49,351 bases of DNA, from positions 7,099 to 56,449 of the forward strand of contig JBBTSQ010000025.1 in assembly GCA_038078755.1 (NCBI GenBank), read 5' to 3'. The notes under the pieces were generated by a model. That model worked only from the letters and a program-made list of their open reading frames with translations, did no database searches and was not told the DNA's origin. Below, one piece after another: positions 34-42,313 of this stretch. The position numbers and the translations under genes are program-made. The DNA is from Patescibacteria group bacterium (GTDB taxonomy: Bacteria; Patescibacteriota; Minisyncoccia; Phycocordibacterales; JBAYGS01). Within the stretch, counting starts at the first letter, position 1, and every line of letters starts with the position of its first letter.

Positions 34-375
34 TTATTGTGAGTTGTCTGTTGTTGGTTGTGGGTTTATTTCCTCCGTACTCGTCGCAGGAAGCACCTCT
101 AATCCACCATCAGTATCGAACTTCGTCTTCAAATCATCCACATTTTTACTAAAATTATCCGAGAATTGGGAGAATGATTTTTTGAGCGTATCAAACGGCC
201 CCGGCGCATCAACAGCGGGCAATGTATCCGTATTAGGAGTGGAAAAAGTCAGGGCGCGATTGGTCGAAAGCCATATACCAATAATCGCCACCACCAACAC
301 GATCGTCGTACCGATAGCAATCCGCTCGCGCACCACCGCTGGCTTATTTCGTACGTTTTGTAAAAAATCAGACAT
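34..375 (-). CDS. small membrane-anchored hypothetical protein (113 aa)
   Basis: ATG ORF with one TM helix (IAIGTTIVLVVAIIGIWL). The C-terminal tail PQPTTDNSQ is encoded by an A/C-only word tract (about 35-70). No family recognised. Confidence 0.45.
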   Translation of the reverse strand: MSDFLQNVRNKPAVVRERIAIGTTIVLVVAIIGIWLSTNRALTFSTPNTDTLPAVDAPGPFDTLKKSFSQFSDNFSKNVDDLKTKFDTDGGLEVLPATSTEEINPQPTTDNSQ

Positions 376-1054: not shown

Positions 1055-1120
1055 GATACTAAGAGTATAATAAAAAAACTGACAACATACAACTTACAAT
1101 CAGAAAAAAGGAGAAAGTAT

Positions 1121-4003: not shown

Positions 4004-4954
4004 TCATTTTTCGGCAATCTCCGACACTTCCCTCTTAAGCCAAAACTGCGTCAGCTCGGAAAGTTTTGCGATTCCTGCGAAAAGACTCAAACCCTGAATC
4101 GGCGAATCAACGTTGTGCGGGCTAAACTCAAATCCACATCGCCCGCCAGCTACCCGATCAAATGACCCGTCGATTCCAGTAGCGTTTCCCGGACAACTGA
4201 AATGAATCCCCCGGGCATCCAAACACTTGTGAAATGCGTACGGATCAGACGGCTTACCCATCATAGTGGCATAAGCGATCATCACCGCTTCCGACACTTC
4301 GCATATCAGCGCATCTTGTCGCGCCTGAGGCAAACTTTTGATGTAGTCCACCGCATCAGGACTGAGTACCCCAAAGACACCCGATCCTGATTGTCCCGGT
4401 TCGGCATTACACCGCACCGTGAGTGTCTGCCACTGAGTAGTCGGAAGATCAATTTCGGGAGGAAGATCCAGTATCCACAAGAGAATCACCAAACTCGATT
4501 GCAAAGCGTGAGCAGAGGTCCAATCACACTCTCTTTTCTTGCCAGAGCCATTACAGCTATAGCATTTGGCGCCAGACAATGGCTGTTTTTTCTGCCCATC
4601 GCAATACTGGCAAGCCTCGTGCGTATCAAACCAGATCACCGGCACCTTTGCCCAATATTCCACAAATGGGTCGCCTGATCTGCGGGGTTGTTTGACCAAT
4701 GCGCGATTGAAACCAAAGGTATCAGCAGAAAATGATCCGCAAAATTCGGAGTTGAGCAAGTCACCTCTCAGACCGTACATCTTCTCGAGATGCGCGACTA
4801 CCGGCGCAGTCGACGAGACATCTTCGAGCCCTGCCAGATACGCTTCGTGAATGCGAACGATGATCGTCGTATCCGAGCTTCGCCACCGCAGTTGATACCA
4901 ACACGCAATCGACTCATCCAAAAGCATCCGCGTCTTCCTCTGTGCAGAGTTCAT
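4004..4954 (-). CDS. orphan protein with DnaJ-type CxxCxGxG zinc-finger motifs (316 aa)
   Basis: Start re-chosen at the ATG giving MNSAQRK, because the longer ORF reads through a word tract. Contains CQYCDGQKK...CYSCNGSGKK. Locally GC-rich, with many shadow ORFs. Confidence 0.55.
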   Translation of the reverse strand: MNSAQRKTRMLLDESIACWYQLRWRSSDTTIIVRIHEAYLAGLEDVSSTAPVVAHLEKMYGLRGDLLNSEFCGSFSADTFGFNRALVKQPRRSGDPFVEYWAKVPVIWFDTHEACQYCDGQKKQPLSGAKCYSCNGSGKKRECDWTSAHALQSSLVILLWILDLPPEIDLPTTQWQTLTVRCNAEPGQSGSGVFGVLSPDAVDYIKSLPQARQDALICEVSEAVMIAYATMMGKPSDPYAFHKCLDARGIHFSCPGNATGIDGSFDRVAGGRCGFEFSPHNVDSPIQGLSLFAGIAKLSELTQFWLKREVSEIAEK

Positions 4955-5005
4955 TGTGTACCTTTCTTTGTAAAGTTCAAATTCTAGATACACTCTACTC
5001 CTTTT

Positions 5006-5135
5006 AAGAAAAACTAACAACAAACAACTCACCACCAACAATCAGAGTGAAAAGGATCGATTATTCACTTCAAATACTCGATTCTTTTCACTTTCAGATC
5101 CTGTTGTATGTTGTCAGTGGTAAGTTGTAAGTTTG
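5006..5135. repeat. inverted pair of A/C-only word tracts around a 15-bp hairpin
   Basis: Forward arm AAAAACTAACAACAAACAACTCACCACCAACAATCAGAG. Reverse arm TCAGATCCTGTTGTATGTTGTCAGTGGTAAGTTGTAAG. Central stem AGTGAAAAGGATCGA/TCGATTCTTTTCACT with one mismatch. Confidence 0.85.
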
Positions 5136-5137
5136 TC

Positions 5138-5755
5138 CTACAACCCATTAAACTCACTCATTGCTTTGTCGCGACCGTGCTCGACGAGGACAGAGAGGCC
5201 TTCAGCAACTTTCTTTGCAGACTTTTTAATCAGTTCTAATTCGGCTTTTTTGAATGGGTCGACAATAAAATCACCGATCAATTTTTCTCCGGACGGTTTT
5301 TTTAATTTGCCCGATGCAGTTGAAGGCGAAATCCCCATTCGTACCCGCACAAACGCTTCCGTGCCGATCGCTTTAATAATCGACTCGACGCCCTTGTGTC
5401 CACCAGAACTTTTATTAAAAGAAATTTTAAACTTACCAATTGGAATATCGAGGTCATCGTGAATCACCACCAGATTTTCTGCCACACCCCCTTTGAAAAC
5501 TTTAGACTTCGCCACTTTGACCAGAGACTTCACCGAAAGCCCCGACTTATTCATAAAAGTCTCGGGTTCAACAAGTGTTACTTTGTTTTTTGCCACACCC
5601 CCTTTCGAGACCGACGCATTTATTTTTTTATCCAACACAAAGTCATCTGCTGAAATAGATTTGGCAAATACACCCAGCACAATCCTGCCCGCGTTATGAC
5701 GAGTGAGCGCGTATTCCTCTCCGGGATTTCCGAGACCAACGATGATGTAGTGCAT
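5138..5755 (-). CDS. pth: peptidyl-tRNA hydrolase
   Basis: MHYIIVGLGNPGEEYALTRHNAG N-terminal signature. ORF-track residues 1-32 (5756-5851) are read-through of a stop-free word tract. Confidence 0.9.
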   Translation of the reverse strand: MHYIIVGLGNPGEEYALTRHNAGRIVLGVFAKSISADDFVLDKKINASVSKGGVAKNKVTLVEPETFMNKSGLSVKSLVKVAKSKVFKGGVAENLVVIHDDLDIPIGKFKISFNKSSGGHKGVESIIKAIGTEAFVRVRMGISPSTASGKLKKPSGEKLIGDFIVDPFKKAELELIKKSAKKVAEGLSVLVEHGRDKAMSEFNGL

Positions 5756-5760
5756 AGGGG

Positions 5761-5858
5761 GAGTATATAACAAACAACTAACAACACACAACAGACCAGA
5801 AACCGACAACCCACAACAAATAACTGACAACTCACAACATACAACAAACAATCAGAAG
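5761..5858. repeat. long A/C-only word tract
   Basis: CAAACAACTAACAACACACAACAGACCAGAAACCGACAACCCACAACAAATAACTGACAACTCACAACATACAACAAACAATCAGAAG. Confidence 0.85.
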
Positions 5859-5871
5859 AGAAAATTCCCCG

Positions 5872-6195
5872 AAATTAGGTTAAAGGCTCAACCCTGAATA
5901 GCCTGTCGGGTTGAGCCTTTAACCTAATTTTAACTAAAAACCACTAAAAATACTGCATCAAAAATCGTGTGATAATTCTCTAAACGGCCTTGCAGTAGAG
6001 CCATGAAATGCTCGAACGGCTCACCGAAGCACCATATGTATCGAACGTATGGGTAAAGAGTAATAGGGTGTTACTGGTTCTTTTATGTAGTATGCTTGTA
6101 AGTAATAAGCATGGTGCTCGGTGAGCCGTTTAGCACTTCTACGTTCCAGTTGAGCCGTTTTTTGGCGAAAAAGCCAAAAAACGGCTCAACCGAGC
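5872..6195. repeat. GAGCC/GGCTC modular hairpin repeat, copy A
   Basis: 23-bp perfect stem AAATTAGGTTAAAGGCTCAACCC/GGGTTGAGCCTTTAACCTAATTT (5872-5930), then a body shared with copies B and C (TAGAGCCATGAAATGC..GAACGGCTCAC). It ends in an 18-bp stem GTTGAGCCGTTTTTTGGC/GCCAAAAAACGGCTCAAC. Confidence 0.8.
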
Positions 6196-9473: not shown

Positions 9474-9869
9474 ATGACGAGTCCCGACAATTTTCACATA
9501 CACATCAAAACAAAAAGCAACCCGTCACCTGACCGGTTGCTTTTTGCTTCTATCAAAGAAGCGATCTTAGGGAAAGACTATGACCTTGCGGTCATTCTCA
9601 CAACGCCAAAAGAAACCCAAAGGCTCAATCGCGATTACCGACAGAAAGATTCCCCCACCGACATCTTGAGTTTTCCAATTAATTCATTCGAGGGTGAAAT
9701 CTACCTCGACATTGAAACCGCCAAAGTCGAGGCGCCAAAATTTGACCGTCCGATTGAAAACTTTTTGCCATTCTTATTTATCCACGGATGCCTCCATTTG
9801 AAAGGAATGGCACATGGTAGTACAATGGAGAAGATCGAGGCCAAATTTCGAAAAGAATTTGGCATCTAA
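9474..9869 (+). CDS. ybeY: rRNA maturation endoribonuclease YbeY
   Basis: HGCLHLKGMAHG zinc-binding H-x3-H-x5-H motif; 131 aa. Confidence 0.85.
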   Translation: MTSPDNFHIHIKTKSNPSPDRLLFASIKEAILGKDYDLAVILTTPKETQRLNRDYRQKDSPTDILSFPINSFEGEIYLDIETAKVEAPKFDRPIENFLPFLFIHGCLHLKGMAHGSTMEKIEAKFRKEFGI

Positions 9870-9874
9870 ATGAT

Positions 9875-9970
9875 CAATTAACAATTTCCAATTTTCAATC
9901 AATTTTCAATCACATAATTTAAATATTTCTTAGTTGATTGAAAATTTGATAATTGATAATTTGAAATTAC
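9875..9970. repeat. imperfect AT-rich inverted word tract (TTCCAATTTTCAAT class)
   Basis: Left arm CAATTAACAATTTCCAATTTTCAATCAATTTTCAATCAC. Right arm GTTGATTGAAAATTTGATAATTGATAATTTGAAATTAC. Confidence 0.75.
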
Positions 9971-13659: not shown

Positions 13660-13890
13660 CTAAACCAGTGAGCCTTTAAACTAATTTTCACCAAAAAACG
13701 TTAAAAATCGCCTCGTCAAAAACCGTGTCAACATTTCCCAAACGGCGTTGCCATTAAGGCACAGAATGCCTGAACGGCTCACTGGTTTTGGCCTCAAAAG
13801 GAGTGAGCCGTTCAGTGCTTTTAAGCCTACATAGAGCCACGCCACAGGAAAAAGTGTAAAATATGTTGCAACAGAGCCATTTTTGACATC
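13660..13890. repeat. GAGCC/GGCTC modular hairpin repeat, copy B
   Basis: Carries only the right arm of the terminal hairpin (GAGCCTTTAAACTAATTTT), then the shared body with a 13-bp stem CTGAACGGCTCAC/GTGAGCCGTTCAG, ending ACAGAGCCATTTTTGAC. Confidence 0.75.
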
Positions 13891-14528: not shown

Positions 14529-14606
14529 ACAACTCCCCTTTCCCTTTTCTAAGTGCAGTTCTACAAAAACAGTAGCAAAGACGATACAAAAAAGCAACGA
14601 AGAGAG

Positions 14607-14705
14607 AAAACTAACAATTCACAACACACAACTAACAACAAAACCTCTACCACTCACCTGTATTATTTTTCTGATTGTACGTTGTAAGTTGTAAGTTGTT
14701 TGTTA
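14607..14705. repeat. inverted pair of A/C-only word tracts
   Basis: Forward AAAACTAACAATTCACAACACACAACTAACAACAAAACC. Reverse TCTGATTGTACGTTGTAAGTTGTAAGTTGTTTGTT, which runs into a TATAAT box. Confidence 0.85.
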
Positions 14706-14752
14706 TAATTGGTCTCATACTTGTATTTGCTTCTATTCATAATTCTTAAATC

Positions 14753-15691
14753 ATGAATCTTGATTCTTCTTTGTACGATCTCGCAATTGTTGGCGGCGGG
14801 CCAGCAGGTGCCGCCGCCGGAGTCTACGCGTCGCGCAAACGCTTGAAGACGGTCTTTATCACCAAAGATTTTCAAGGCCAGAGTGCTGTCTCCGAAGGCA
14901 TTGAAAATTGGATCGGTAGTGTCAAAATATCCGGCACCGATCTCGCTAAAAATCTCGAAACGCATCTTCGTGCCTACGCGGGAGATGTTGTCACCATCAA
15001 AACAGGTGAACTCTGCGAATCGGTCTCAAAAATTCCCGAAGGCTTTTCCATCAAAACAAAAACTGCTGAATACCGCGCAAAAACAGTCTTAATCACCACC
15101 GGCAGTTTCCGCCGGAAACTTGAGGTGAAGGGCGCTGACATTTTTGAACACAAGGGGCTCACCTATTGCGCCACTTGCGACGGCCCACTCTTTGCCGATG
15201 CAGATGTAGTGGTGGTCGGCGGTGGCAACGCCGCCTTTGAAACCTGTGCCCAACTCCTCGCCTATTGCAAAAGTGTTACCCTCATCAATCGCAGTAATGA
15301 TTTCCGTGCCGATCCGGTGACTGTCGAAAAGGTTTTGAAAAATCCAAAAATGCGAGCAATCAAAAACGCTATTCCAACCGAAGTTAAGGGTGATAAATTT
15401 GTCACAGCATTTGTCTATACCGACGCAACTACTCAAAAGCTCGTTGAAATCCCAACGACTGGCATTTTTGTGGAAATTGGACTGCTCCCAAATACCAGTT
15501 TTGTAAAATATGTCGTCACGCTCGATAAATGGAATCATATCGTTGTTGACCCACGCACCCAGCGAGCAAGTACACTCGGCATCTGGGGAGCTGGGGACTG
15601 TACGGATGGTTTGTATCATCAAAACAATATCGCCGCCGGAGATGCCGTGAAAGCGCTTGAAGATATTTATAATTTTTTACACACACAGTAG
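14753..15691 (+). CDS. trxB: thioredoxin-disulfide reductase
   Basis: GGGPAG FAD motif, CATCDG redox centre and VVGGGNAA NADPH motif. Confidence 0.9.
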   Translation: MNLDSSLYDLAIVGGGPAGAAAGVYASRKRLKTVFITKDFQGQSAVSEGIENWIGSVKISGTDLAKNLETHLRAYAGDVVTIKTGELCESVSKIPEGFSIKTKTAEYRAKTVLITTGSFRRKLEVKGADIFEHKGLTYCATCDGPLFADADVVVVGGGNAAFETCAQLLAYCKSVTLINRSNDFRADPVTVEKVLKNPKMRAIKNAIPTEVKGDKFVTAFVYTDATTQKLVEIPTTGIFVEIGLLPNTSFVKYVVTLDKWNHIVVDPRTQRASTLGIWGAGDCTDGLYHQNNIAAGDAVKALEDIYNFLHTQ

Positions 15692-15788
15692 GGAGAGATT
15701 TATGATTCATGATTCATGATTTATGAATAAAGAAAAAGCTTCGACTCTGTACTTTCTACTTTTTACTTAATACTGTATACTTAGATAT

Positions 15789-16217: not shown

Positions 16218-16288
16218 TCTTGGGAAAGAATCTTTATTCGATCCTAATTACATGGAAACACGTCCTCAATAAAAAGTTGAAGGGTTAT

Positions 16289-17167
16289 TTAAAATATGTG
16301 TTCATCCCTATATGGAATTTCAACCTCTTTTAAAATTCCACTATCCCAGTTATAGAAGTATATCTTAGCCTGATGGAGATTTTCTTCTTGGACTTTGAAC
16401 GCTTCTTCTTGAGTTATATTATCTCCCACTAAAATTAAAATTAATTGACTGACACCTAGCGGCGCAAGTTTTGTCTTCTTTCTAGCGATTATAAATCTTA
16501 TGGCCTCATAATTTTTTGAGGATATATACTTTATCTCTATTGCCGTTGGTTTCTTACTATTTTTTAAATATACCACCCCATCGACAATAACACTCTTTTC
16601 ATGATTAGTTATTTTAACTTGAGATTTATATCTATCTGCATATCTGTCAATCAAATTAGTTTGTACCACTTCTTCTATTCGATATATCTTTTGGTATCTC
16701 TTAATAACCTCCTCTTTTGTGGACTTAGGAACAACTTTGTGAACTCCAGTTTCTACATTCAAAGGCTTATCTTTTGTCACCAAACCCTCAATGACTTTAT
16801 CATCCTCCTTGGTCTCCTTTATTCTTTGTTGTTTTATCTCAGATTCAGTGGCACCCTTTATTTTTACTGGCTCACCTTTTACACCACCAGGACCAACCTC
16901 CGTCATTCTATTTCTAATAAAATGATCTATCGCCTCGTGATGTTTTTGAAGTAAAACTAAGCAAATAATGAGAATAGAAGCCGGCCACGATACTAGAACT
17001 AATTTTGTATAATCATTTATTACTAAAAGAAGTTCTGAAATCCTGATTCTCCCACTAAACAGATCAACCATTATCGAGGTGAGTATAAACCAAAAAAAGA
17101 AAGTAAAAATAGCACAAAATGTTTGTTTAATTATTTCTTTAGAAGATTCTGTATTATCTTTTTCCAT
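16289..17167 (-). CDS. membrane-anchored protein with C-terminal PD-(D/E)XK-like nuclease motif (292 aa)
   Basis: Two N-terminal TM helices. The C-terminal segment IEEVV...VIVDGVVYLKNSKKPTAIEIKY gives D-x14-E-x-K. The ORF starts 16 nt after the tRNA-Glu 3' end. Confidence 0.5.
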   Translation of the reverse strand: MEKDNTESSKEIIKQTFCAIFTFFFWFILTSIMVDLFSGRIRISELLLVINDYTKLVLVSWPASILIICLVLLQKHHEAIDHFIRNRMTEVGPGGVKGEPVKIKGATESEIKQQRIKETKEDDKVIEGLVTKDKPLNVETGVHKVVPKSTKEEVIKRYQKIYRIEEVVQTNLIDRYADRYKSQVKITNHEKSVIVDGVVYLKNSKKPTAIEIKYISSKNYEAIRFIIARKKTKLAPLGVSQLILILVGDNITQEEAFKVQEENLHQAKIYFYNWDSGILKEVEIPYRDEHIF

Positions 17168-17183
17168 AAATACTTAAAACCTG

Positions 17184-17255
17184 TGACCCTACGGGGAATC
17201 GAACCCCGATTACAGCCTTGAAAAGGCCGTGTCCTAACCGTTAGACGATAGGGCC
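17184..17255 (-). tRNA. tRNA-Glu (anticodon UUC)
   Basis: GGCCCTATCGTCTAACGGTTAGGACACGGCCTTTTCAAGGCTGTAATCGGGGTTCGATTCCCCGTAGGGTCA. Cloverleaf with loop CTTTCAA; no encoded CCA. Confidence 0.85.
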
Positions 17256-17351
17256 ATACCGAAATGATACTATAGCATTTTTATTATTTATAGGGAAGTG
17301 AAATATGCTTGAGCGGTTGAATAATATAGTGTAATATATACCCAAAGATTC

Positions 17352-18365
17352 ATGTTATCTACTTACATACAATCAAATAAAGATTCTAGTGATTTCTTGA
17401 TAAAAGCCAAACTAGCCACCGGCTCATGGCAAATATTATCCAAAATAACAGGGGTGTCCCCAAGAACTCTTCGTAATTGGTACTTATGCCAATCTTCCAT
17501 ACCCCTCGATAGTCTCAAACTACTAAGTAACCACTTGGGAGTGTCTCTGCCCAAATATAAAGCAATCGACATATTGAGACTAAAAAGAAACGCTGCAAAG
17601 AGAGGCGGCCTAAGACGCATAGCACTTTATGGTAACCCCGGGACAATCACAGGGAGGATAAAAGGTGCATTAAGATCAATAAGGACGCAATCGAAAAATC
17701 CCTATTCACCTTTTATTCAGAAAAAAATCAGCATACCCAAACGTTCATCCCAATTAGCTGAATTTGTTGGAATTTTATTAGGAGATGGTCATGTTGGTAA
17801 ACGACAAATTATAATTTCAATAGGGGCGGACGAATATGGCTATACAAAGTATATTTCTAATTTAAGCTTCAAATTATTTCAGTACCGCCCATCGATAAAA
17901 AAGAAAAACGGAGTAGAGGTGTACACACTAGTCTTTTCTCGTACAGCCCTGGTGACATATATAAAAAAGATCGGACTAACTGATTCACACAAAGTAAAAT
18001 CGCAAAGTAATACTCCCCTTTGGATTCGAAATAACAAGAATTATTCCAAGGCGTGTGTCCGAGGATTATTTGACACTGATGGCTCGTTTTTTATTGATAG
18101 ACACTTAATAAAAAATTCGCTATATTACAATGCGGGTATTGCGTTCACTAATTACTCACTGCCACTACTTAAATTTTTCTACTTTACACTGGTCGCTCGA
18201 GGATTCCATCCAACAGTATCGAGTGGTAAAAATGTGTTTCTGCGACGAGATAACGAAATACGCTACTTTTTCAAAGACATTGGGAGTAATAACCCTAAAC
18301 ATTTAAGAAAATTTAGTGAATTTGTAAACAAATATCCCAAAGGAAAGGTACCGAAGAGGTCATAA
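17352..18365 (+). CDS. double-motif LAGLIDADG homing endonuclease with N-terminal HTH
   Basis: LAEFVGILLGDGHV and CVRGLFDTDGSF motifs. HTH-like ILSKITGVSPRTLRNWY. The last 24 nt overlap tRNA-Ser. Confidence 0.85.
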   Translation: MLSTYIQSNKDSSDFLIKAKLATGSWQILSKITGVSPRTLRNWYLCQSSIPLDSLKLLSNHLGVSLPKYKAIDILRLKRNAAKRGGLRRIALYGNPGTITGRIKGALRSIRTQSKNPYSPFIQKKISIPKRSSQLAEFVGILLGDGHVGKRQIIISIGADEYGYTKYISNLSFKLFQYRPSIKKKNGVEVYTLVFSRTALVTYIKKIGLTDSHKVKSQSNTPLWIRNNKNYSKACVRGLFDTDGSFFIDRHLIKNSLYYNAGIAFTNYSLPLLKFFYFTLVARGFHPTVSSGKNVFLRRDNEIRYFFKDIGSNNPKHLRKFSEFVNKYPKGKVPKRS

Positions 18366-18431
18366 CGGCGCCGACTCGAAATCGGATGGTCGGGTCAAAC
18401 CGGCACGAGGGTTCGAATCCCTCCCTTTCCG
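18342..18431 (+). tRNA. tRNA-Ser (anticodon CGA), long variable arm
   Basis: Acceptor GGAAAGG/CCTTTCC, anticodon loop CTCGAAA, T arm GAGGGTTCGAATCCCTC. Confidence 0.8.
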
Positions 18432-18463
18432 CAGAAACAAAAACCTGCTATCCTGTGCACTAC

Positions 18464-18536
18464 GCGCGGTTAGCTCAGTTGGTAGAGCATCCCCTTGACG
18501 TGGGGAGGGTCAGAGGTTCAAGTCCTCTATCGCGCA
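18464..18536 (+). tRNA. tRNA-Val (anticodon GAC)
   Basis: GCGCGGTTAGCTCAGTTGGTAGAGCATCCCCTTGACGTGGGGAGGGTCAGAGGTTCAAGTCCTCTATCGCGCA. Confidence 0.9.
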
Positions 18537-18563
18537 CCCGAAAAGCGAAGCTAGAAACCACAA

Positions 18564-19796
18564 ATGCTCATCCTCGGCATCGAAACCTCCTGCGACGAAA
18601 CCGCAGTGTGCATAGTATCCGCAACCGGCGATAAAAATTCACCTGTTTTTTCTATACTCGGAAATGCCCTTAATTCCCAGACCAAAATTCACGAGCAATA
18701 CGGCGGCGTCTTCCCCGCTCTGGCAAAACGTGAGCATTCAAAAAATTTGATTCCTTTGTTTAAAAAAGTATTAGAAGAATCAGGTTTTGAAAAAAAACTA
18801 ACAACAAACAACTCACAACAAACAACCAGAGAAGAAATTAAAAAGATGCTCGAAAAAGAACCCGAGTTACTCGAACAATTTTTACACTATCTTCCAACCA
18901 TCGAAAAACCTCCCATCGACGCCATCGCGGTCACCGTCGGTCCAGGACTCGAACCAGCACTCTGGGTTGGTATCAATTTCGCTCGCGCACTTTCCCTCGC
19001 GTGGGGCATTCCAATCATTCCAGTCAATCACATGGAGGGGCACATCATTTCTGTTTTGGTAAACAGAAATGAAATTTCCAATACCCAATTCCCAATTTCC
19101 AATTCAAAAACTAAAGACTATCAACCAATAACTAATAACTCCCCCGTCCTTTTCCCCGCTCTCGCCCTCCTCATCTCCGGAGGTCACACCGAACTCATCT
19201 TGATTGAAAGCTGGGGGAAATACAGCAACATCGGACAGACGAGAGACGACGCAGTGGGCGAAGCGTTTGATAAGGTAGCTCGAATGCTTGGTCTGCCATA
19301 CCCAGGTGGTCCTCAAATTTCCGCACTAGCAGAAATTTCGCGGAACAATGCAGAACAAACGCAGACCAATTTCAAACTTCCTCGCCCAATGCTCCACACT
19401 AAAGATTTTGATTTTTCTTTTTCCGGACTCAAGACTGCGGTGCTCTATCTCCTGAAAGACATTGGTACACCCACCAAAGCAGACAGAGAAACAATCGCCA
19501 GAGAATTTGAAGATGCGGTCACCGAAGTACTTGTCACCAAAACAAAGAAAGCACTAGAACGATATGGGGCACAAACACTGATCATTGGTGGTGGAGTAAT
19601 TGCTAACACACACATCCGGAAAGCATTTGAAAAAATGGTGACCGAATATCCGGACACAGGGCTTTTCTTCCCCAATCTCGCTTTGTCGACCGACAACGCA
19701 GTGATGATTGCCTGCGCCGGCTATATGCAACATCTGACCAAACCTTCAGAATCCACTCGAACGCCACTTGTCGCAAAAGGAAATTTAAGCTTCTAA
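18564..19796 (+). CDS. tsaD: tRNA N6-adenosine threonylcarbamoyltransferase TsaD with two low-complexity insertions
   Basis: GIETSCDETAV, VNHMEGH and ISGGHTELI motifs. At 410 aa it is about 70 aa longer than typical TsaD. Confidence 0.9.
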   Translation: MLILGIETSCDETAVCIVSATGDKNSPVFSILGNALNSQTKIHEQYGGVFPALAKREHSKNLIPLFKKVLEESGFEKKLTTNNSQQTTREEIKKMLEKEPELLEQFLHYLPTIEKPPIDAIAVTVGPGLEPALWVGINFARALSLAWGIPIIPVNHMEGHIISVLVNRNEISNTQFPISNSKTKDYQPITNNSPVLFPALALLISGGHTELILIESWGKYSNIGQTRDDAVGEAFDKVARMLGLPYPGGPQISALAEISRNNAEQTQTNFKLPRPMLHTKDFDFSFSGLKTAVLYLLKDIGTPTKADRETIAREFEDAVTEVLVTKTKKALERYGAQTLIIGGGVIANTHIRKAFEKMVTEYPDTGLFFPNLALSTDNAVMIACAGYMQHLTKPSESTRTPLVAKGNLSF

Positions 19797-19838: not shown

Positions 19839-22040
19839 ATGGCAGAAGATAAGACATATCAAGAACCAGATATCCCAAAAGCGTTTTTGAAACCCTACAA
19901 CGCAGATGAACACGAGACTCGTATCTACAAGCTCTGGCAGGAGAGCGGTTTTTTTAATCCAGACAATCTTCCCGACCGACACAAGAAGCCCTTCACCATC
20001 GTGATGCCACCACCAAATGCCAACGGCAACCTCCATGTTGGCCACGCCCTCGCTATCACCCTCGAAGACATTATGATCCGGTTCAAACGTATGCAGGGTT
20101 TCAAGACCCTCTGGGTGCCGGGAGCCGACCACGCTGGTTTTGAGACACAAATCGTGTACGAGAAAAAATTGGAAAAAGAGGGTCGATCTCGATTTAAAAT
20201 GGATCCGCAGGACCTCTACAAAGAGATCCTTGCTTTCACCCTGGAAAACAAAGGTACTATGGAAGCACAGGTGCGCGCACTCGGCGCTTCGTGCGATTGG
20301 TCGCGAGAGAAATTCACCCTCGATCCAGATGTCGTGGCCGAGACACATCGTACCTTCAAGAAAATGTATGATGACGGACTGGTGTACCGCGGTTCACGCA
20401 TAGTGAACTGGTGTAGCAAGCACGCCACTTCCCTTTCCGACGTGGAGACCGAGAGCAAAGAAAAAATCGACCCGTTTTATTATTTCAAATACGGCCCCTT
20501 CACCATCGGTACAGCAAGGCCCGAGACAAAGTTCGGCGACAAGTACGTGGTAATGCATCCGGAAGATACACGCTACGCTGAATACAAGCAAGGTCAGCAG
20601 ATCGAGCTCGAATGGATCAACGGCCCAATCACTGCAACTGTCATCAAAGATGAAGCAATCGACATGGAATTTGGTACGGGTGTGATGACCATCACCCCAT
20701 GGCACGATGCGGTGGATTTTGGCATTGCCGAAAGACACAAGCTCGACCGAGAGCAAATTATCGATATGCGAGGCAAGCTCCTCCCTATCGCTGGCGAATT
20801 TGCTGGTATGAAGATCACCGAAGCACGGCCAAAGATTGTCGAGAAGCTCAAAGCCAAGGGCTTGCTGGTGAAAGTCGATGAGAAATACGTGCACAATGTC
20901 CCCGTCTGCTACAAATGCGAGACGGCTATCGAACCGCAGATTCTCCCACAATGGTTCGTCAAGATGCAACCACTCGCGGAGAAGGCAATCAAGGCCGTGG
21001 AAGCCGGCGAGGTAGTCTTCCAGCCCGACAATTATCGCAAGATCTTCCTCTACTGGATGAACAACACCCTCGATTGGAACATTTCCCGCCAGATTGTCTG
21101 GGGCATTCCGATACCTGCAAAAATTTGTGATTCATGTAGTTTTGCCGAACCTGATTTGGAAAATACATTGACCACCTGTCCAAAATGTAAAAATATGCTC
21201 CGTGCCGACACCGACACCTTCGACACATGGTTCTCCTCCGGCCAGTGGCCACTCCTCTCGCTTAGCTATTCAAAAGGTGCCGATTGGAAGTCTTTCTATC
21301 CGACAGATGTGATGGAGACCGGCTCCGATCTCATTTTCAAATGGATCCCGCGCATGGTCATCTTCGGCCTCTACCTCGTAGGCAAGGTGCCGTTCCACAC
21401 AGTGTACCTACACGGCTTGGTGAACGACGCTTCCGGCAAGAAGATGAGCAAGAGTAAAGGCAACGTGATCAATCCGACCGACCTCATCGTGAAGTACGGC
21501 ACCGACGCGCTTCGCATTGGCCTCATTGTGGGCAACACTCCAGGCACCGACCTTTCACTTTCAGAAAATAAAATAAAAGGCTACAAAAATTTCGGCAACA
21601 AGCTCTGGAATATCACTCGCTTTGTATTAACCAGCTGTCAGGGGATGGAAAAAATGACCCTCGACGTCCCCAACAAAGATATTTTGACTGATGAAGACAA
21701 AAAACTGATTTCAGAACTTCACGCACTGGTCGCCGATGCCACACACGATATTGAAGAATACCGATTCTATCTGGCAGCGGAAAAAATCTACCACTACGTC
21801 TGGCATACGTTTGCCGATGTGATTATTGAAGCATCAAAGGCAAAAATTGCGGGAGCCGACATATCCGCGAAACAATCTTGCCAATATACCCTGTTCTATA
21901 TTCTGATCACTTGTGTCAAACTGCTCCACCCGTTTATGCCATTTGTGACCGAAACCATTTGGGAACATCTGCCGATTGCAGACAAACAACTACTCATGAT
22001 TGAAAAATGGCCAGTATTAGAAGAAGGAAGTATGAAGTAA
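19839..22040 (+). CDS. valS: valine--tRNA ligase (short form without C-terminal coiled coil)
   Basis: PPPNANGNLHVGHA (HIGH) and KMSKSKGN motifs, with an editing-domain region; 733 aa. Confidence 0.9.
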   Translation: MAEDKTYQEPDIPKAFLKPYNADEHETRIYKLWQESGFFNPDNLPDRHKKPFTIVMPPPNANGNLHVGHALAITLEDIMIRFKRMQGFKTLWVPGADHAGFETQIVYEKKLEKEGRSRFKMDPQDLYKEILAFTLENKGTMEAQVRALGASCDWSREKFTLDPDVVAETHRTFKKMYDDGLVYRGSRIVNWCSKHATSLSDVETESKEKIDPFYYFKYGPFTIGTARPETKFGDKYVVMHPEDTRYAEYKQGQQIELEWINGPITATVIKDEAIDMEFGTGVMTITPWHDAVDFGIAERHKLDREQIIDMRGKLLPIAGEFAGMKITEARPKIVEKLKAKGLLVKVDEKYVHNVPVCYKCETAIEPQILPQWFVKMQPLAEKAIKAVEAGEVVFQPDNYRKIFLYWMNNTLDWNISRQIVWGIPIPAKICDSCSFAEPDLENTLTTCPKCKNMLRADTDTFDTWFSSGQWPLLSLSYSKGADWKSFYPTDVMETGSDLIFKWIPRMVIFGLYLVGKVPFHTVYLHGLVNDASGKKMSKSKGNVINPTDLIVKYGTDALRIGLIVGNTPGTDLSLSENKIKGYKNFGNKLWNITRFVLTSCQGMEKMTLDVPNKDILTDEDKKLISELHALVADATHDIEEYRFYLAAEKIYHYVWHTFADVIIEASKAKIAGADISAKQSCQYTLFYILITCVKLLHPFMPFVTETIWEHLPIADKQLLMIEKWPVLEEGSMK

Positions 22041-22068
22041 AATGTATAAAGTATAAAGCCTAATACAA

Positions 22069-22105
22069 AAAAGACCAGAAATTGCTTCGCAATTTCTGGT
22101 CTTTT
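22069..22105 (+). terminator. rho-independent terminator after valS, nested in AGTATAAAG / CTTCATACTT word arms
   Basis: GACCAGAAATTGC-ttc-GCAATTTCTGGTC followed by TTTT. Confidence 0.8.
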
Positions 22106-22254
22106 CCCCGTTTTAACACTTCATACTTCATACTTCATACGTTATTTCGACGAGCGAGAAGCACGTGGATGAGTACTCTCGTACACAGTGTTCGAGTCGA
22201 AGTCGAATCAACAGGCAACTGTTTTTTGTTTCAGTTGCCTGTTATACTTCCCCT

Positions 22255-24682: not shown

Positions 24683-24775
24683 GTTATTAACTTACAACAA
24701 ACAACTGACAATCCAGACGCTTTGGTCGGGACTCCAACCAAAGCGTCGGAGCTTACAATTAAAAATACAATAACA

Positions 24776-27484: not shown

Positions 27485-29284
27485 TCATTCCCCCGTCCGC
27501 ATCATCTTCAAAAAGACGTCTTGTGGAATGTTCACCGTTCCACGATCCTTCATTCGTTTTTTACCCTCTTTTTGTGCCTCGCGCAATTTCATTTTTCGGG
27601 TAATGTCCCCGCCATACAAATAGCCCGTCACATCTTTCTTCATTGCAGACAATGTACGTGAAGACAAAATCCGCCCCATTGCTTTGCCTTGGATTTTAGT
27701 AGTAAACATCTGTCTTGGAAGCACATTAAAAAGTCGTTCCACTGCTTTCTCTGCGTCTTCTTGTGCTCGTTTACGAGAGACTACGCGGGTAAAGGCCGGC
27801 ACTGGCTCATCAGCAACCAAAATATCCAGTCGCACCACATCCGCCTCTCGCATTCCCTCCATTGCATACGAAATCGAAGCGAAACCAGAAGACACACTTT
27901 TGAGCTCATCAAAAAAGTTACGCATCAACTCGCGCAATGGCATCATCACCGTCACCGAATTGCGATTGTCTCCAAAATTTTCGGTCTCCCCAATCTCTGC
28001 CTCGTGCTCAAAAAGCTTTTGCAACACATCTCCCAAATATCGCATTGGGGTAATAATCTTCACCTTTGCCCATGGTTCAAAAATTTGCTCCACCAAATGC
28101 TCCTCCGGGAATTTTGATGGCGAGTATACTGTCTCGACTTTCCCCCCACGCAGATGCACTTCATAGGTAATGGTCGGACTAGTAATCACCAACTTGAGAT
28201 TAAATTCTCGTCGCAATCGTTCAGTGATAATCTCAAGATGCAACATTCCAAGAAATCCGCACCGAAAGCCCCGTCCGAGTGTGCCTGAAGATTCTTCTTC
28301 GTGGGTAAAGGATGAATCAGAAAGGCGAAGCTTTCCCAGCGCCTGTTTCAAAAAATCAAAATCATCCTGACTTTCAGGATAAATAGACGCCCACACCACC
28401 GGATTGGGACTCATATAGCCTGGAAAGGGTAACAATGGGTCCTTAAGCGCTGCCACGGTGTCACCCACCGAGGCAATCCCGGGTTGTTTAATGCCAGTCA
28501 CAATATACCCAATCTCGCCTTCACCAAGCGATTCCACTGGCACTTCGTGTGGAGAAAAAATCCCTGTTTCAAGTGCAAAAAATTTCTCGTCAGCGACTTT
28601 AAAAAGTAAGGCGTCACCTTTTGAAATCTTCCCGCCGAATACCCGAACATAGACCGTCACCCCGCGGTGGTTTGAGTATTGAAAATCAAAAACGAGTGAT
28701 CGAAATTGCCCCGAACTTTCTGTCTCGTGTTTGGGCGCCGGCACGCGAGTAATAATTTCATTCAAAAGCTCAATCACTCCTTGTCCGGTCTTGCCCGATA
28801 CTTCGAGAATATCCGAAAGTGGCACGCCAAGTAGAAGCGCGATTTCTTCTTTGACCTCCGCTACTCGTGCGAGCGGTGAATCAATTTTCGACACCACCGG
28901 TACAATGGTCAGTCCCGCCTCACGTGCCATCCCAAGAGTGGTCAAGGTCTGCGCCTGCACTCCCTGTGTGGCATCGACTAACAAAATTGAACCCTCGACC
29001 GCTTTGAGCGCCCGAGATACTTCGTACGAAAAGTCGATGTGTCCGGGAGTATCGATCAAATTCATCACATACTCCTGACCATCTTTAGTGTGCTTCATTC
29101 GCACTGGTTGCATTTTGATGGTAATCCCTCGCTCGCGCTCAAGCTCCATACTATCAAGCACCTGCGCCATCATTTTGCGCTTTTCAATGGTGTGCGTCAG
29201 CTCAAGCATCCGGTCGGCAAGCGTCGACTTGCCGTGGTCAATGTGAGCAATAATGCTGAAATTTCTGATAAAACGAGATTCCAT
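27485..29284 (-). CDS. lepA: translation elongation factor 4 (LepA)
   Basis: AHIDHGKST and DTPGHIDF GTPase motifs with a LepA C-terminal domain; 599 aa. Confidence 0.95.
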   Translation of the reverse strand: MESRFIRNFSIIAHIDHGKSTLADRMLELTHTIEKRKMMAQVLDSMELERERGITIKMQPVRMKHTKDGQEYVMNLIDTPGHIDFSYEVSRALKAVEGSILLVDATQGVQAQTLTTLGMAREAGLTIVPVVSKIDSPLARVAEVKEEIALLLGVPLSDILEVSGKTGQGVIELLNEIITRVPAPKHETESSGQFRSLVFDFQYSNHRGVTVYVRVFGGKISKGDALLFKVADEKFFALETGIFSPHEVPVESLGEGEIGYIVTGIKQPGIASVGDTVAALKDPLLPFPGYMSPNPVVWASIYPESQDDFDFLKQALGKLRLSDSSFTHEEESSGTLGRGFRCGFLGMLHLEIITERLRREFNLKLVITSPTITYEVHLRGGKVETVYSPSKFPEEHLVEQIFEPWAKVKIITPMRYLGDVLQKLFEHEAEIGETENFGDNRNSVTVMMPLRELMRNFFDELKSVSSGFASISYAMEGMREADVVRLDILVADEPVPAFTRVVSRKRAQEDAEKAVERLFNVLPRQMFTTKIQGKAMGRILSSRTLSAMKKDVTGYLYGGDITRKMKLREAQKEGKKRMKDRGTVNIPQDVFLKMMRTGE

Positions 29285-29317
29285 AGGGCAATACTAACAG
29301 AAATTGATAAAAAGGAA

Positions 29318-29571
29318 AGAATGGCTACACAGAGCCATATTTTTGACTTTCTGCCGTGGCGTGGCTCAACATAGCCATAAAAGTGCTGAACGGCTCACTC
29401 CCGCACAGTTTGCGGAAGTGAGCCGTTCAGGCATTTCATGGCTCTACTACAATACCGTTTGGAAAATTTTGATACGGTTTTTGACGAGGTGATTTTTAGC
29501 GCTTTTTGGTAAAAATTAGTTTAAAGGCTCAACCCTAAATAGCCTGTCGGGTTGAGCCTTTAAACTAATTT
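29318..29571. repeat. GAGCC/GGCTC modular hairpin repeat, copy C (body inverted relative to copy A)
   Basis: Terminal 23-bp stem AAATTAGTTTAAAGGCTCAACCC/GGGTTGAGCCTTTAAACTAATTT at 29513-29571. Body stem AGTGAGCCGTTCAG/CTGAACGGCTCACT. Opposite end ACAGAGCCATATTTTTGAC. Confidence 0.8.
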
Positions 29572-29645
29572 CGGTGAATTTTCCTTCTGGTTGTCAGTTG
29601 TTTGTTGTGAGTTGTGAGTCTGTTCTCTATCTCCCATCCGCATCC

Positions 29646-30629
29646 TCACTCCTCATCATCTGTCCCCGAAATAGTTTCTGGGTGTTGCATCTTTACTGAC
29701 ACGGTATCAGTAATATCATCAATTTCTCCACGAAAAATCCCCGCGATATTATGCCATGACTGTTTAATGCGATGATCGGTCACTCGGTCTTGAAGCACGT
29801 TGTACGTGCGAATTTTTTCTGAACGATCAGCAGTGCCGATCTGCTCTTTACGAGCTGAAGCGAATTTTTGCGCCTCTTGCTGTTCATACAACACCTCAAG
29901 TTTTGCCTGCAAAATGGACAGTGCTTTTTCACGATTCTTCGCCTGACTGCGTTCGGATGTACACCGGACATCAATACCGGTAGGTCGATGGATCAATCGC
30001 ACTGCTGTCTCTACCTTGTTGACGTTCTGCCCTCCCGCCCCGCCGGAGCGAGAAAATTCCATATCGAGATCAGCGGGATTAATTTGAAATTTGTGTTTTT
30101 TGCGTATCGGCAAAATCGCCACTGACGCGGTGGAGGTATGTACCCTACCAATCTTTTCAGTTGCCGGCACTCGTTGAATGCGATGTACCCCCGTCTCATA
30201 TCGCAATTTTTCGTACACTCCCTTGCCCTTAATTTCAAAACTGGCTTCTTTGTAGCCATCAAGATTGGCCAGTGACTCCGCCATTTTCATACAGGTCCAA
30301 CCTTTGGAGAGCGCGTACTTTTGATATATCTCCGAAAGTTCCCGCGCAAACAGCGCCGCTTCATCACCCCCCGCCCCCGCTCGCACTTCAAGAATAATTT
30401 CATTAGGTAACTCTTCTTCTACCTGTTCAGAGGCGACAATGTCTTCCATTTGTTTCAATAACTCTTTTTTCTGTTGTTCGAGCGTTGCGAGCTCTTCTAC
30501 AGCCAATTCCCGCATTGATGGATCGGTCTTCGACAATTCCAAAAGATGCGCTTCTTCCTTGAGCGCCGTCTCGTATGCCTCTGCCAAATACATCGTCTTT
30601 GGATTTTTTTTGAATTCCTCGATAGTCAT
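29646..30629 (-). CDS. prfA: peptide chain release factor 1
   Basis: PAT tripeptide (RVPATE) and GGQ ([11 protein letters not shown]). ATG start at 30629 preferred over the upstream TTG. Confidence 0.9.
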
Positions 30630-36348: not shown

Positions 36349-36419
36349 GCTTTTAATAATGGTGTAAGTATACTACAAAAATAATTGGTCAACTAGGGAT
36401 AAGGTGCAAAATCAAATTA

Positions 36420-36520
36420 ACAATTTACAACAAACAACTGACGACATGAGGGAAAGGGAGAAGTGAGGGACGGGTCGCGTCGCGACCCGTCCCTCTGATT
36501 GTTTGTTGTGAGTTACCCAT
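36420..36520. repeat. inverted pair of A/C-only word tracts around a GC palindrome
   Basis: CAATTTACAACAAACAACTGACGAC ... GAGGGACGGGTCGCG/CGCGACCCGTCCCTC ... TCTGATTGTTTGTTGTGAGTTA. Confidence 0.85.
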
Positions 36521-36522
36521 TC

Positions 36523-36552
36523 TTGCTTCTTATCTTACCTTTATGGTATAAT
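36523..36552 (+). promoter_or_regulatory. promoter TTGCTT-18-TATAAT for rnpB
   Basis: The TATAAT box ends 6 nt before the predicted RNase P RNA 5' end. Confidence 0.55.
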
Positions 36553-41847: not shown

Positions 41848-41865
41848 GAAAATAAATCAAAATGT

Positions 41866-41888
41866 AAAAATCAAAAAGCAAAATGATA
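41866..41888 (+). repeat. left 23-nt inverted repeat bracketing the four-helix-bundle gene
   Basis: AAAAATCAAAAAGCAAAATGATA; 21 of 23 positions match the reverse complement of 42274-42296. Confidence 0.7.
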
Positions 41889-41914
41889 CTGTAAAAGTAA
41901 TAAATAGAAATGCA

Positions 41915-42286
41915 TCATCTTTTTCCTTTGAGGGTAATAATACTTGAAGCGAGCATGTTTGCGATCTGGACCAATTCACCGGACAGTGCGCTAATCTGAG
42001 CCGCAGGGCCCTTTTGCGTATCCCTAAGTAAATCAAGCCAGATTTTTGACTCATTTGCCGATTTGAGCGAATGAGTAAAGAAGTTTATGAAATCTCTGCG
42101 AGAACTCGCCGATTGTGCTTCCACATAATTTGCAAGAACACTGGTACCGCTCCGAAGTAACTGCTTTCCTAACACTCCGCAAGTGGAATCTTTAGGCAGT
42201 GTATCAATAAACGCAATGAGATGCAAAACCCATCGATACAAACGATTCTTGAATTCACTTTTAAATTTTGCCCTATCATTTTGCAC
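41915..42286 (-). CDS. four-helix-bundle protein (23S rRNA intervening-sequence protein / Avd-like family)
   Basis: 123 aa, GTG start, LRSGTSVLANYVEAQSASSRRDFINFF motif. Confidence 0.8.
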   Translation of the reverse strand: MQNDRAKFKSEFKNRLYRWVLHLIAFIDTLPKDSTCGVLGKQLLRSGTSVLANYVEAQSASSRRDFINFFTHSLKSANESKIWLDLLRDTQKGPAAQISALSGELVQIANMLASSIITLKGKR

Positions 42287-42296
42287 TTTGATTTTT
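42274..42296 (-). repeat. right 23-nt inverted repeat (overlaps the gene start)
   Basis: The reverse complement reads AAAAATCAAAGTGCAAAATGATA. Confidence 0.7.
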
Positions 42297-42313
42297 GAAT
42301 TTTAATTTTACTA

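Follow-up and report, generated by a model that had tools for sequence, protein, structure and literature searches.

A heptanucleotide tract inside the tsaD gene of a Patescibacteria bacterium and its relation to intergenic period-7 repeats

We have studied a stretch of 49,351 nt from a Patescibacteria group bacterium (assembly GCA_038078755.1, contig JBBTSQ010000025.1, positions 7,099–56,449), which we will call the window. Its tsaD gene contains a short in-frame tract which belongs to the same kind of sequence as tracts found in the intergenic spacers. It is a short, imperfect array of heptanucleotides, one of a population of such arrays which fills the spacers. Comparison with related genomes indicates that it occupies a linker of normal length and is not an insertion. 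On balance we lean towards the view that the array is similar to the short tandemly repeated repetitive (STRR) sequences of cyanobacteria, that the linker was overwritten by copying and that TsaD tolerates the result. The features of the window are collected in Table 1; other loci are designated by L and a number.

An autocorrelation scan finds 30 tracts with period 7 in the window, as compared with 0.9 in shuffled sequences, and periods 5, 6, 8, 9 and 10 give 0–5 tracts. Tandem Repeats Finder (TRF) recovers the same arrays. Nearly all of them are intergenic, and many form inverted pairs which flank a terminator-like hairpin. Their heptamers form several families: ACAACNN, AAGTATN, ATGATTC/AAGAATT, CCAATTY, TTAGAAA and AAAGCAA. 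The ACAACNN family, organized in part as a 14-nt super-unit ACAACAA-ACAACTN, has 12 members; 11 of them are outside tsaD and apparently intergenic. Most start with a run of A followed by CT and end in ACAA[C/T]CAGA[A/G]. The copies differ in the number and order of their units, so that they have in common only the units and the short end motifs.

The only solid coding sequence (CDS) of the window with period-7 tracts is tsaD, which has three of them. It is an open reading frame (ORF) of 410 amino acids, identified by Pfam PF00814 (E 4.6e-79) and by its match to the TsaD structures in the Protein Data Bank (PDB; E 5e-72). Its AlphaFold2 (AF2) model has a predicted local distance difference test (pLDDT) value of 85.5 and a Foldseek template modelling (TM) score of 0.86 to 4wq5, the TsaD of E. 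coli. The protein has the Kae1/TsaD fold, and the metal-binding motif HMEGH and the motifs GPG and SGGHT are invariant in our alignment A1. Its best matches are found in metagenome-assembled genomes of Parcubacteria, which belong to the Patescibacteria. A groundwater contig is 99.98% identical to the window across 14.4 kb.

The tract which we call site 1 consists of an A run, CT, units NACAACN and a final CAGAG. It encodes KKLTTNNSQQTTRE, residues 77–90 of TsaD. In positions 18792–18826 TRF gives period 7 with 5.0 copies and 75% match, as well as period 14 with 2.5 copies and 90% match; it has thus at least three 7-nt units placed head to tail, as a heptanucleotide array should. A preliminary description of this DNA had reported a 24-nt identity with an intergenic tract and a similar end in both. 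Both observations hold. Positions 18793–18816 (AAAAACTAACAACAAACAACTCAC) are an exact 24/24 match to 5009–5032, the similarity persists on alignment and extends without gaps to 41 of 46 nt (5002–5047 against 18786–18831), and both tracts end in ACAA[C/T]CAGAG. A third copy of the 24-nt word, with 3 mismatches, is found at 1074–1097.

No such identity is expected in 100 dinucleotide-preserving shuffles of the window. This test overstates the surprise, because both copies belong to a repeat family of 12 members with low information content. When the 7-nt units of the family itself are shuffled, the sharing of a word of 24 nt or longer has P = 0.003; this null takes no account of the 14-nt alternation of the family, so the true P is higher. 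A metagenome scan with a 22-mer also found the exact 22–25-nt word of the tract, but in three unrelated contigs only (L089 2817–2838, L091 5360–5381 and L090 339–360), from two unrelated organisms with a GC content of 60% and 39%. In the contig with 60% GC the word lies in a spacer of a ribosomal-protein operon, directly upstream of a gene read as rplB. The identity is real and not trivial: it argues for the relatedness of both copies, and it is no proof of copying between them.

The setting of the two copies is different. On the transcribed minus strand the intergenic twin provides the G/U arm on the 3' side of a compound hairpin of about 120 nt, followed by UUUUU; the RNA fold of 5000–5140 (-) has -47.4 kcal/mol and z -5.9. 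It lies downstream of pth (5138–5755, Pfam E 3e-48), and its other neighbour is an unnamed ORF with its first ATG at 4954. As RNA, the tract in tsaD has no predicted structure (z +0.46) and no partner arm. In the AF2 model its residues 81–90 form a coil between helices, with mean pLDDT 68.

The tract had been described as part of an insertion of about 40 residues with respect to E. coli TsaD. Such an excess does exist, since residues 78–116 (39 amino acids) have no counterpart in the E. coli protein, where they fall between chain residues 70 and 72. The first tract supplies only about 14 of them. The rest, residues 91–116, is kept in all 25 aligned Parcubacteria TsaD with the consensus IKKILEREPELxExFLExIPTIEKP, in which L96, E99 and P116 are invariant, and the model has helices at 86–95 and 100–112 with pLDDT 93–94. 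This helical hairpin is a feature of the whole lineage; it is unrelated to the tract and not derived from it.

The tract itself does not behave as an insertion either. KREH and GPGLE are separated by 67 residues here, and the mode of this distance, 66–68, is found in 52 of 106 Parcubacteria TsaD. Ahead of the hairpin, the roughly 14 linker residues are hypervariable in sequence and constant in length. In L003 (83% protein identity) the linker DNA is an ACAACNN array as in the window, with 7 point changes; in L001 (79%) it is an AATTTCT/AATTCCC array of equal length, which fills the same linker in L006 and L007 too; in L004 and L008 (75–71%) it is non-repetitive and one codon shorter. The preliminary description had named orthologs with a non-repetitive segment at this position as grounds for rejecting its insertion, and L004 and L008 have such a segment. 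Nucleotide identity between the window and L001 falls to 43–50% across residues 71–98, from 75% overall, which marks a discrete replacement. As the linker has the same length with a different tract or with none, the sequence at site 1 was rewritten and not inserted. There is no gain in length over empty orthologous sites, as would be found for a mobile element, and in the alignments with relatives neither terminal repeats nor a target duplication can be seen at the borders of the tract. From these alignments, the heptamer array appears to have replaced an existing linker of normal length.

It had also been proposed that the tract cannot create a stop codon in any frame, a property which would allow an element of this kind to invade genes. 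This is not the case. The tract contains 2 T and one sense frame reads AAC TAA, so that it can create a stop; one antisense frame is also closed. The property is not general, since for most tracts within coding sequences in the survey described below the open sense frames number just one or two. What the preliminary description observed is therefore partly confirmed and its interpretation partly supported, but the discrete invading element which it proposed is replaced by a solo 7-nt array. It mentioned neither the 7-nt periodicity nor the two further tracts in a second loop of tsaD.

This second loop (residues ~169–193) is disordered, with pLDDT <50 for residues 170–191. It contains the two tracts of site 2; the first is a (CCAATTY)n array with 4.7 copies by TRF, which encodes EISNTQFPISNS, and the second encodes a segment ending in YQPITNNS. 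The length of the loop goes from 20 residues in E. coli to 58; it is 44 here and 20–21 in 19 homologs, and the loop is missing in L008. It is a true hot spot of length variation. Its heptamers depend on the lineage: a perfect (AAGTTCC)x4 in the Taylorbacteria locus L006, GGAATTA units in L007 and CCAATTY in the window.

A close strain, L092, is 94–98% identical to the window, and its site-1 tract is unchanged. At site 2 a run of 17 nt differs by 7 substitutions, without any indel; the rest of this alignment (about 440 nt) is about 97% identical. L092 has AATTATC AATGATC AATTTTC where the window has AATTTCC AATACCC AATTCCC. The form of L092 is that of L003 and L004, so that the form of the window is derived. 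Three units switched sub-family together, from ..ATC to ..CCC, with no increase in periodicity. To judge from the alignment, this rewrite looks like a short templated patch, unlike what independent mutations would give.

The spacers also differ between strains. The valS-prsW spacer cannot be aligned between the window (204 nt, 22017–22221) and L092 (65 nt, 5498–5563). In the window it has an AAGTATN arm, a hairpin at ~22068–22105 and an ACTTCAT arm, and it resembles L001; in L092 its arms are ATGATTC and GTTGT, and it resembles L003 and L004. Each version resembles the spacer of a different, more distant relative, so that the spacer is a mosaic or is swapped as a cassette, with exchange among lineages. 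After the stop codon of hsp20, on the downstream side, about 85 nt of heptamer arrays precede the terminator in the window; in L004 the terminator is present and the arrays are absent.

To see how general these features are, we examined the tsaD loci of 80 GTDB species, 49 of them Patescibacteria and 31 other bacteria, with densities given per 10 kb. In Patescibacteria the density of period-7 tracts is 4.96 in tsaD (27 tracts, in 18 of 49 genes), 0.89 in other CDS and 4.83 in intergenic regions. In the other bacteria these values are 0, 0.48 and 1.69. The density in the tsaD of Patescibacteria is 5.6 times that of other CDS (binomial P 1e-9), and control periods are not enriched: periods 5, 8 and 10 give 0.4–0.55 throughout the CDS of Patescibacteria, and in their intergenic regions the control periods give 0.75–1.7. 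Loci with a tract in tsaD have 2.77 tracts per 10 kb elsewhere, as compared with 0.76 in loci without it (P 0.003), so that the tsaD tracts follow a propensity of the genome as a whole; the latter loci make up 31 of the 49 species. About 12 of the 32 tracts of other CDS are found, by their position, in the large gene directly downstream of tsaD, which Pfam identifies as valyl-tRNA synthetase (ValRS) in the 8 genes tested.

The 147 tracts of the survey correspond to 99 distinct heptamers, A-rich on one strand; the A content is 44% in tsaD tracts and 53% in tracts of other genes. The process is thus generic in sequence and specific in period, its strength varies from genome to genome, and the loops of tsaD are hit far above expectation. 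The other 48 Patescibacteria tsaD genes are intact through their tracts, and the single frameshifted gene, in L026, is broken away from any tract. This frameshift (L026 6001–7213, near residue 56) is probably a sequencing error. Several species have perfect or nearly perfect heptamer arrays in tsaD: L006 (10492–10531), L056 with (ACACCAA)x5 at about residue 193, L045, L043 and L025. Such arrays imply a recent expansion and indicate that arrays are still growing elsewhere. Slippage by one unit in them would shift the frame of a gene which is normally essential.

The reading towards which we lean may be put together as follows. The starting point would be a flexible linker of fixed length which all Parcubacteria TsaD have between helix 1 and the lineage-specific helical hairpin. 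In an ancestor of this genome and of its relatives at least 83% identical, an ACAACNN array would have overwritten the DNA of the linker with no change in length. We infer that it was copied into the linker by a short-patch templated process (ectopic gene conversion or template switching), which might be primed on the flanks formed by A runs and purine runs; slipped-strand mispairing within the array would keep its units alike. The only versions seen keep the reading frame and have no sense-strand stop; selection would retain no others. They may owe their survival to the A/C-rich strand: the residues which it encodes are hydrophilic and disordered, and their coil is neutral for the fold. The alleles are then spread or swapped between related lineages by homologous recombination. 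More generally, a period-7 process common to the lineage would generate arrays, and dispersed arrays of one family would serve each other as templates, so that weakly constrained DNA would be rewritten, not necessarily with a change in length. For TsaD the tract probably has no use; it would be a by-product of a period-7 process acting on the whole genome, tolerated unusually well by the loops of this protein.

Several observations weigh against this reading. No donor has been identified: the copy at 5004–5047 is identical in only 41 of 46 nt, and a search in the 49-kb window gave no donor for the rewritten sequence of site 2. No polymorphism in unit number was seen among close strains (4 and 6 cluster members, and L092). 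The site-1 tracts of the window and L003 are identical in 35 of 42 nt, as compared with 49% at four-fold sites, and the peptide of the tract is conserved between them as much as the rest of TsaD, so that the tract does not evolve without constraint. In L001, L006 and L007, whose proteins are 61–63% identical, the AATTTCT array keeps its synonymous third positions, identical in 8 of 9 and 8 of 10 against a background of 38–44% (P about 0.008); this conservation could reflect selection on the nucleotide sequence. Pure tolerance also leaves unexplained the 5.6-fold enrichment of tsaD over other CDS. As the AATTYCY family is found in loop 1 or in loop 2, depending on the lineage, the conserved third positions make recurrent acquisition or refreshing likelier than simple inheritance. 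We had considered a shared ancestry for the peptide ISNSQFLISN of L001, L006 and L007; this is weakened by the presence of the same peptide family in the other loop elsewhere.

A broader proposal, to which we give only tentative credit, is that Patescibacteria have an active process, independent of sequence, which writes and rewrites 7-nt-periodic tracts in weakly constrained DNA, be it spacers, arms which flank terminators or loops of proteins. It would often preserve length, its tracts would serve as mutual templates, and TsaD, and to a lesser extent ValRS, would be its preferred coding targets. If so, there would be a mutational or conversion mechanism, specific to the lineage, which makes protein insertions and turns them over; alternatively, the heptamers might be shared sites read by a factor which binds nucleic acids.

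The arrays might also arise purely in situ, by slippage and homogenisation of units, in which case the 24-nt identity would be a convergence within a vocabulary of low information and no copying between loci would be needed. With 99 heptamers in 147 tracts, a slippage bias of a generic kind is suggested; other species have perfect arrays, the word of the tract is found in unrelated genomes, and our unit-shuffle null is blind to the 14-nt alternation. A heptamer excess in many bacteria has been ascribed to polymerase slippage, according to a statement in PMC4692102 which cites Mrazek 2007. Yet slippage alone does not easily account for 12 ACAACNN members with common start and end motifs within 49 kb, nor for a shared word which has P = 0.003 even inside the family. 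It also agrees poorly with site 2, where 7 positions and three units changed at once with a switch of sub-family and no gain in periodicity, and with the AATTYCY family, which appears in one loop or the other depending on the lineage. We consider this explanation rather unlikely. A small mobile or selfish element inserted in frame, of the type of the Rickettsia palindromic elements (RPEs) or the MITEs (miniature transposable elements with inverted repeats), which survived for want of stop codons, is highly improbable. The near identity to intergenic copies, the common ends, and the in-frame position in a surface coil would agree with it, as would the second loop, which is longer in lineages with tracts (44 residues against 20–21), and there is a precedent in the RPEs found in frame in many Rickettsia genes (PMC10969869). 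But site 1 shows no net insertion, and one sense frame carries a stop. The sequence consists of 40 nt of simple repeat only; in tsaD it forms no palindrome and lacks a partner arm, and the alignments show no terminal inverted repeats or target duplication; copies which vary in the number and order of units leave no defined full-length element.

The tract might instead be kept for a function. As an A/C-only stretch of mRNA it might bind a factor or pair with the G/U arms of the spacers, it might make the synthesis of TsaD sensitive to N6-threonylcarbamoyladenosine (t6A) through ANN codons, or it might be a slippage switch. The enrichment specific to tsaD across 49 species, the conservation of the tract above the synonymous background and its lack of pairing potential of its own speak for such a role, and binding of a regulator was proposed by MacGregor for TAACTGA repeats (PMC4679880). 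ANN codons make up 64% of the tract and 29% of the rest of tsaD, as a result of its A-rich composition. Against a function we find many unrelated heptamers in the loops, 31 of 49 species whose tsaD has no tract, and no alleles with a frameshift or a different length; the tract region has no promoter-like site, and its terminator-like sites are no more common than in shuffled sequences. We therefore think that a function is improbable. Within it, the idea of a t6A sensor is reduced to a minor rival, since tsaD tracts are not richer in A than those of other genes. Phase variation at a contingency locus was also rejected: no tsaD is frameshifted at its tract and there are no variants in unit number.

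Heptamer repeats have been described in other bacteria. The STRR sequences of heterocystous cyanobacteria (Calothrix, Nostoc and Anabaena) are heptanucleotide repeats. The Calothrix report is cited in PMC4692102. Like the cyanobacterial sequences, the arrays described here are formed by tandem 7-nt units, belong to a few dispersed families per genome, are mostly intergenic and have an enigmatic origin and function. They differ in that they belong to another phylum and have A-rich, imperfect units, with 5 fixed and 2 variable positions and in part a 14-nt super-unit; they are also often inverted arms around terminator-like hairpins and recur in the loops of a conserved enzyme. The TAACTGA direct repeats of marine Beggiatoaceae and of some Cyanobacteria and Bacteroidetes have 2–6 copies, mostly intergenic near start codons, and about 25 ORFs contain or overlap them (MacGregor 2015, PMC4679880). 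Stop codons limit their orientation, within ORFs they are found at the periphery of the protein, and their mobility is unsettled (PMC4679880). Our arrays are similar in unit size, dispersal and preference for spacers, with some members inside ORFs. But that system has one dominant heptamer and here there are many; its copies in ORFs lie at protein ends or in hypothetical proteins, and here they are in internal loops of TsaD and ValRS, recurrent across the phylum, with evidence of length-neutral overwriting.

The repeats GGGAATC of Xanthomonas and GGGGA(T/C)T of Nostoc form intergenic arrays at 0–50 bp from the ends of ORFs, some of them inverted, and at one and the same spacer their length and sequence differ widely between close relatives (PMC4692102). 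The intergenic location, the inverted arrangements and the variation of spacers between relatives are also found here. Those repeats are G-rich and form quadruplexes, whereas the A/C-only tract of tsaD is unable to do so. RPEs, of about 150 bp, are palindromic and are found in frame inside genes (PMC10969869). RPEs and MITEs are, like our repeats, common to spacers and coding sequences, in frame where the fold permits; but RPEs have a conserved full-length sequence and add length, and the tsaD tract is a non-palindromic simple repeat of 40 nt which adds none at site 1. Simple sequence generated by slippage in coding regions was reportedly described as cryptic simplicity by Tautz, Trick and Dover in 1986. 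Locally repetitive DNA which results from a slippage-like turnover, in unconstrained protein segments and with concerted evolution, is common to both cases. The strict 7-nt register is not; since 3 does not divide 7, all three phases are read in every heptamer array.

Table 1. Coordinates of tsaD, its tracts and members of the ACAACNN family in the window
Feature	Position	Strand	Basis
tsaD CDS, host of three period-7 tracts	18564..19796	+	ORF, Pfam, PDB match, AF2 model
Site-1 tract: A run, CT, (NACAACN) units, CAGAG; residues 77-90	18792..18833	+	TRF, identity to 5002-5047
Rest of the ~40-residue excess over E. coli, residues 91-116, helical hairpin	18834..18911	+	alignment A1, AF2
Site-2 tract 1, (CCAATTY)n	19070..19110	+	TRF period 7, 4.7 copies
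Site-2 tract 2, (AACTAAT-like)n	19116..19141	+	period-7 scan; repeat family D1
Intergenic twin of the tsaD tract	5004..5047	+	sequence identity, RNA fold
Arm of GTTGTNN units, inverted partner of the tract at 5004-5047	5097..5135	+	repeat families D5, I19; RNA fold
Longest ACAACNN member (~12 units), directly upstream of pth start codon	5766..5860	+	TRF periods 7, 14, 21
ACAACNN member, A-run start as in tsaD tract, CAGA end	1069..1108	+	family comparison
ACAACNN member, A/C version on minus strand	37..68	-	repeat families, TRF
Inverted ACAACNN / GTTGTNN arm pair between divergent genes	14603..14713	.	period-7 scan, repeat families
ACAACNN member beside tRNA-Phe	24686..24716	+	repeat families
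ACAACNN member, A/C version on minus strand, adjoining a copy of the 200-270-nt repeat	29583..29622	-	repeat families
Terminator-like compound hairpin: G+C-rich hairpin between an ACAACNN and a GTTGT arm	36413..36525	.	repeat families

Other observations in the window also concern heptamers. The gene pth, with its start codon fixed by the Pfam match, has a heptamer leader rich in G/U, about 90 nt long (5756–5860, minus strand), which reaches up to the ATG and has no recognisable Shine-Dalgarno sequence. Inverted heptamer arms lengthen terminator-like hairpins at 22020–22148, 36413–36525 and 9867–9970, and in the pairs 14734–14767 with 15696–15729 and 41854–41903 with 42259–42308; in two cases the arms bracket an entire small gene, with 928 and 355 nt between them. 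There is also a non-coding repeat of about 200–270 nt in three copies, at ~5860–6040 (+), ~13660–13870 (+) and ~29330–29585 (-), which are 75–84% identical and have two strong hairpins. A heptamer tract precedes each copy, in one of the three from a different family. In Rfam only tRNAs of the window are above threshold, and a permissive search of 29280–29680 gave only microRNA-like hairpin matches below it. This repeat might represent a gene for a small RNA or else a mobile element of miniature size.

Three further features were noticed in the tsaD region and its neighbours. In the sister lineage of L004 and L008 the tsaD segment of residues 66–113, linker and helical hairpin, has only 38–44% nucleotide identity to the window, with 73% for the whole gene, which suggests that the segment was recombined and is a mosaic. 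The block 5' of tsaD is rearranged between strains: in the window (16218–18564) it contains an unknown ORF, tRNA-Glu, a free-standing LAGLIDADG-like ORF (17352–18365), tRNA-Ser and tRNA-Val, and in L092 (1464–2045) only these three tRNA genes, in a different order and orientation. In several Patescibacteria ValRS has a histidine-phosphatase domain (His_Phos_1) inside its class-I synthetase domain, with Pfam E 1e-30 to 2e-54 (L015 8073–10829, L028 7532–10285, L043 7669–9906 and L047 8091–10937); heptamer tracts are also present in several of these genes.

In the searchable literature we found no paper which links Patescibacteria or the candidate phyla radiation to heptamer repeats or to TsaD loops derived from repeats. 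Heptanucleotide repeats, an old puzzle of a few bacterial groups, are extended here to Patescibacteria. The hot spot in tsaD, the length-neutral rewriting and the swapping of cassettes are new to us and can be tested in public data. They offer a natural experiment: the loops of one enzyme repeatedly written in differing heptamer families, a pair of strains with a clustered rewrite, and spacers which are swapped. With public metagenomes it becomes possible to test slippage against templated conversion as the origin of repeats. For annotation, peptides similar to ISNSQFLISN should be taken as translated repeats and not as motifs. The finding points to one source of lineage-specific protein insertions in reduced genomes.

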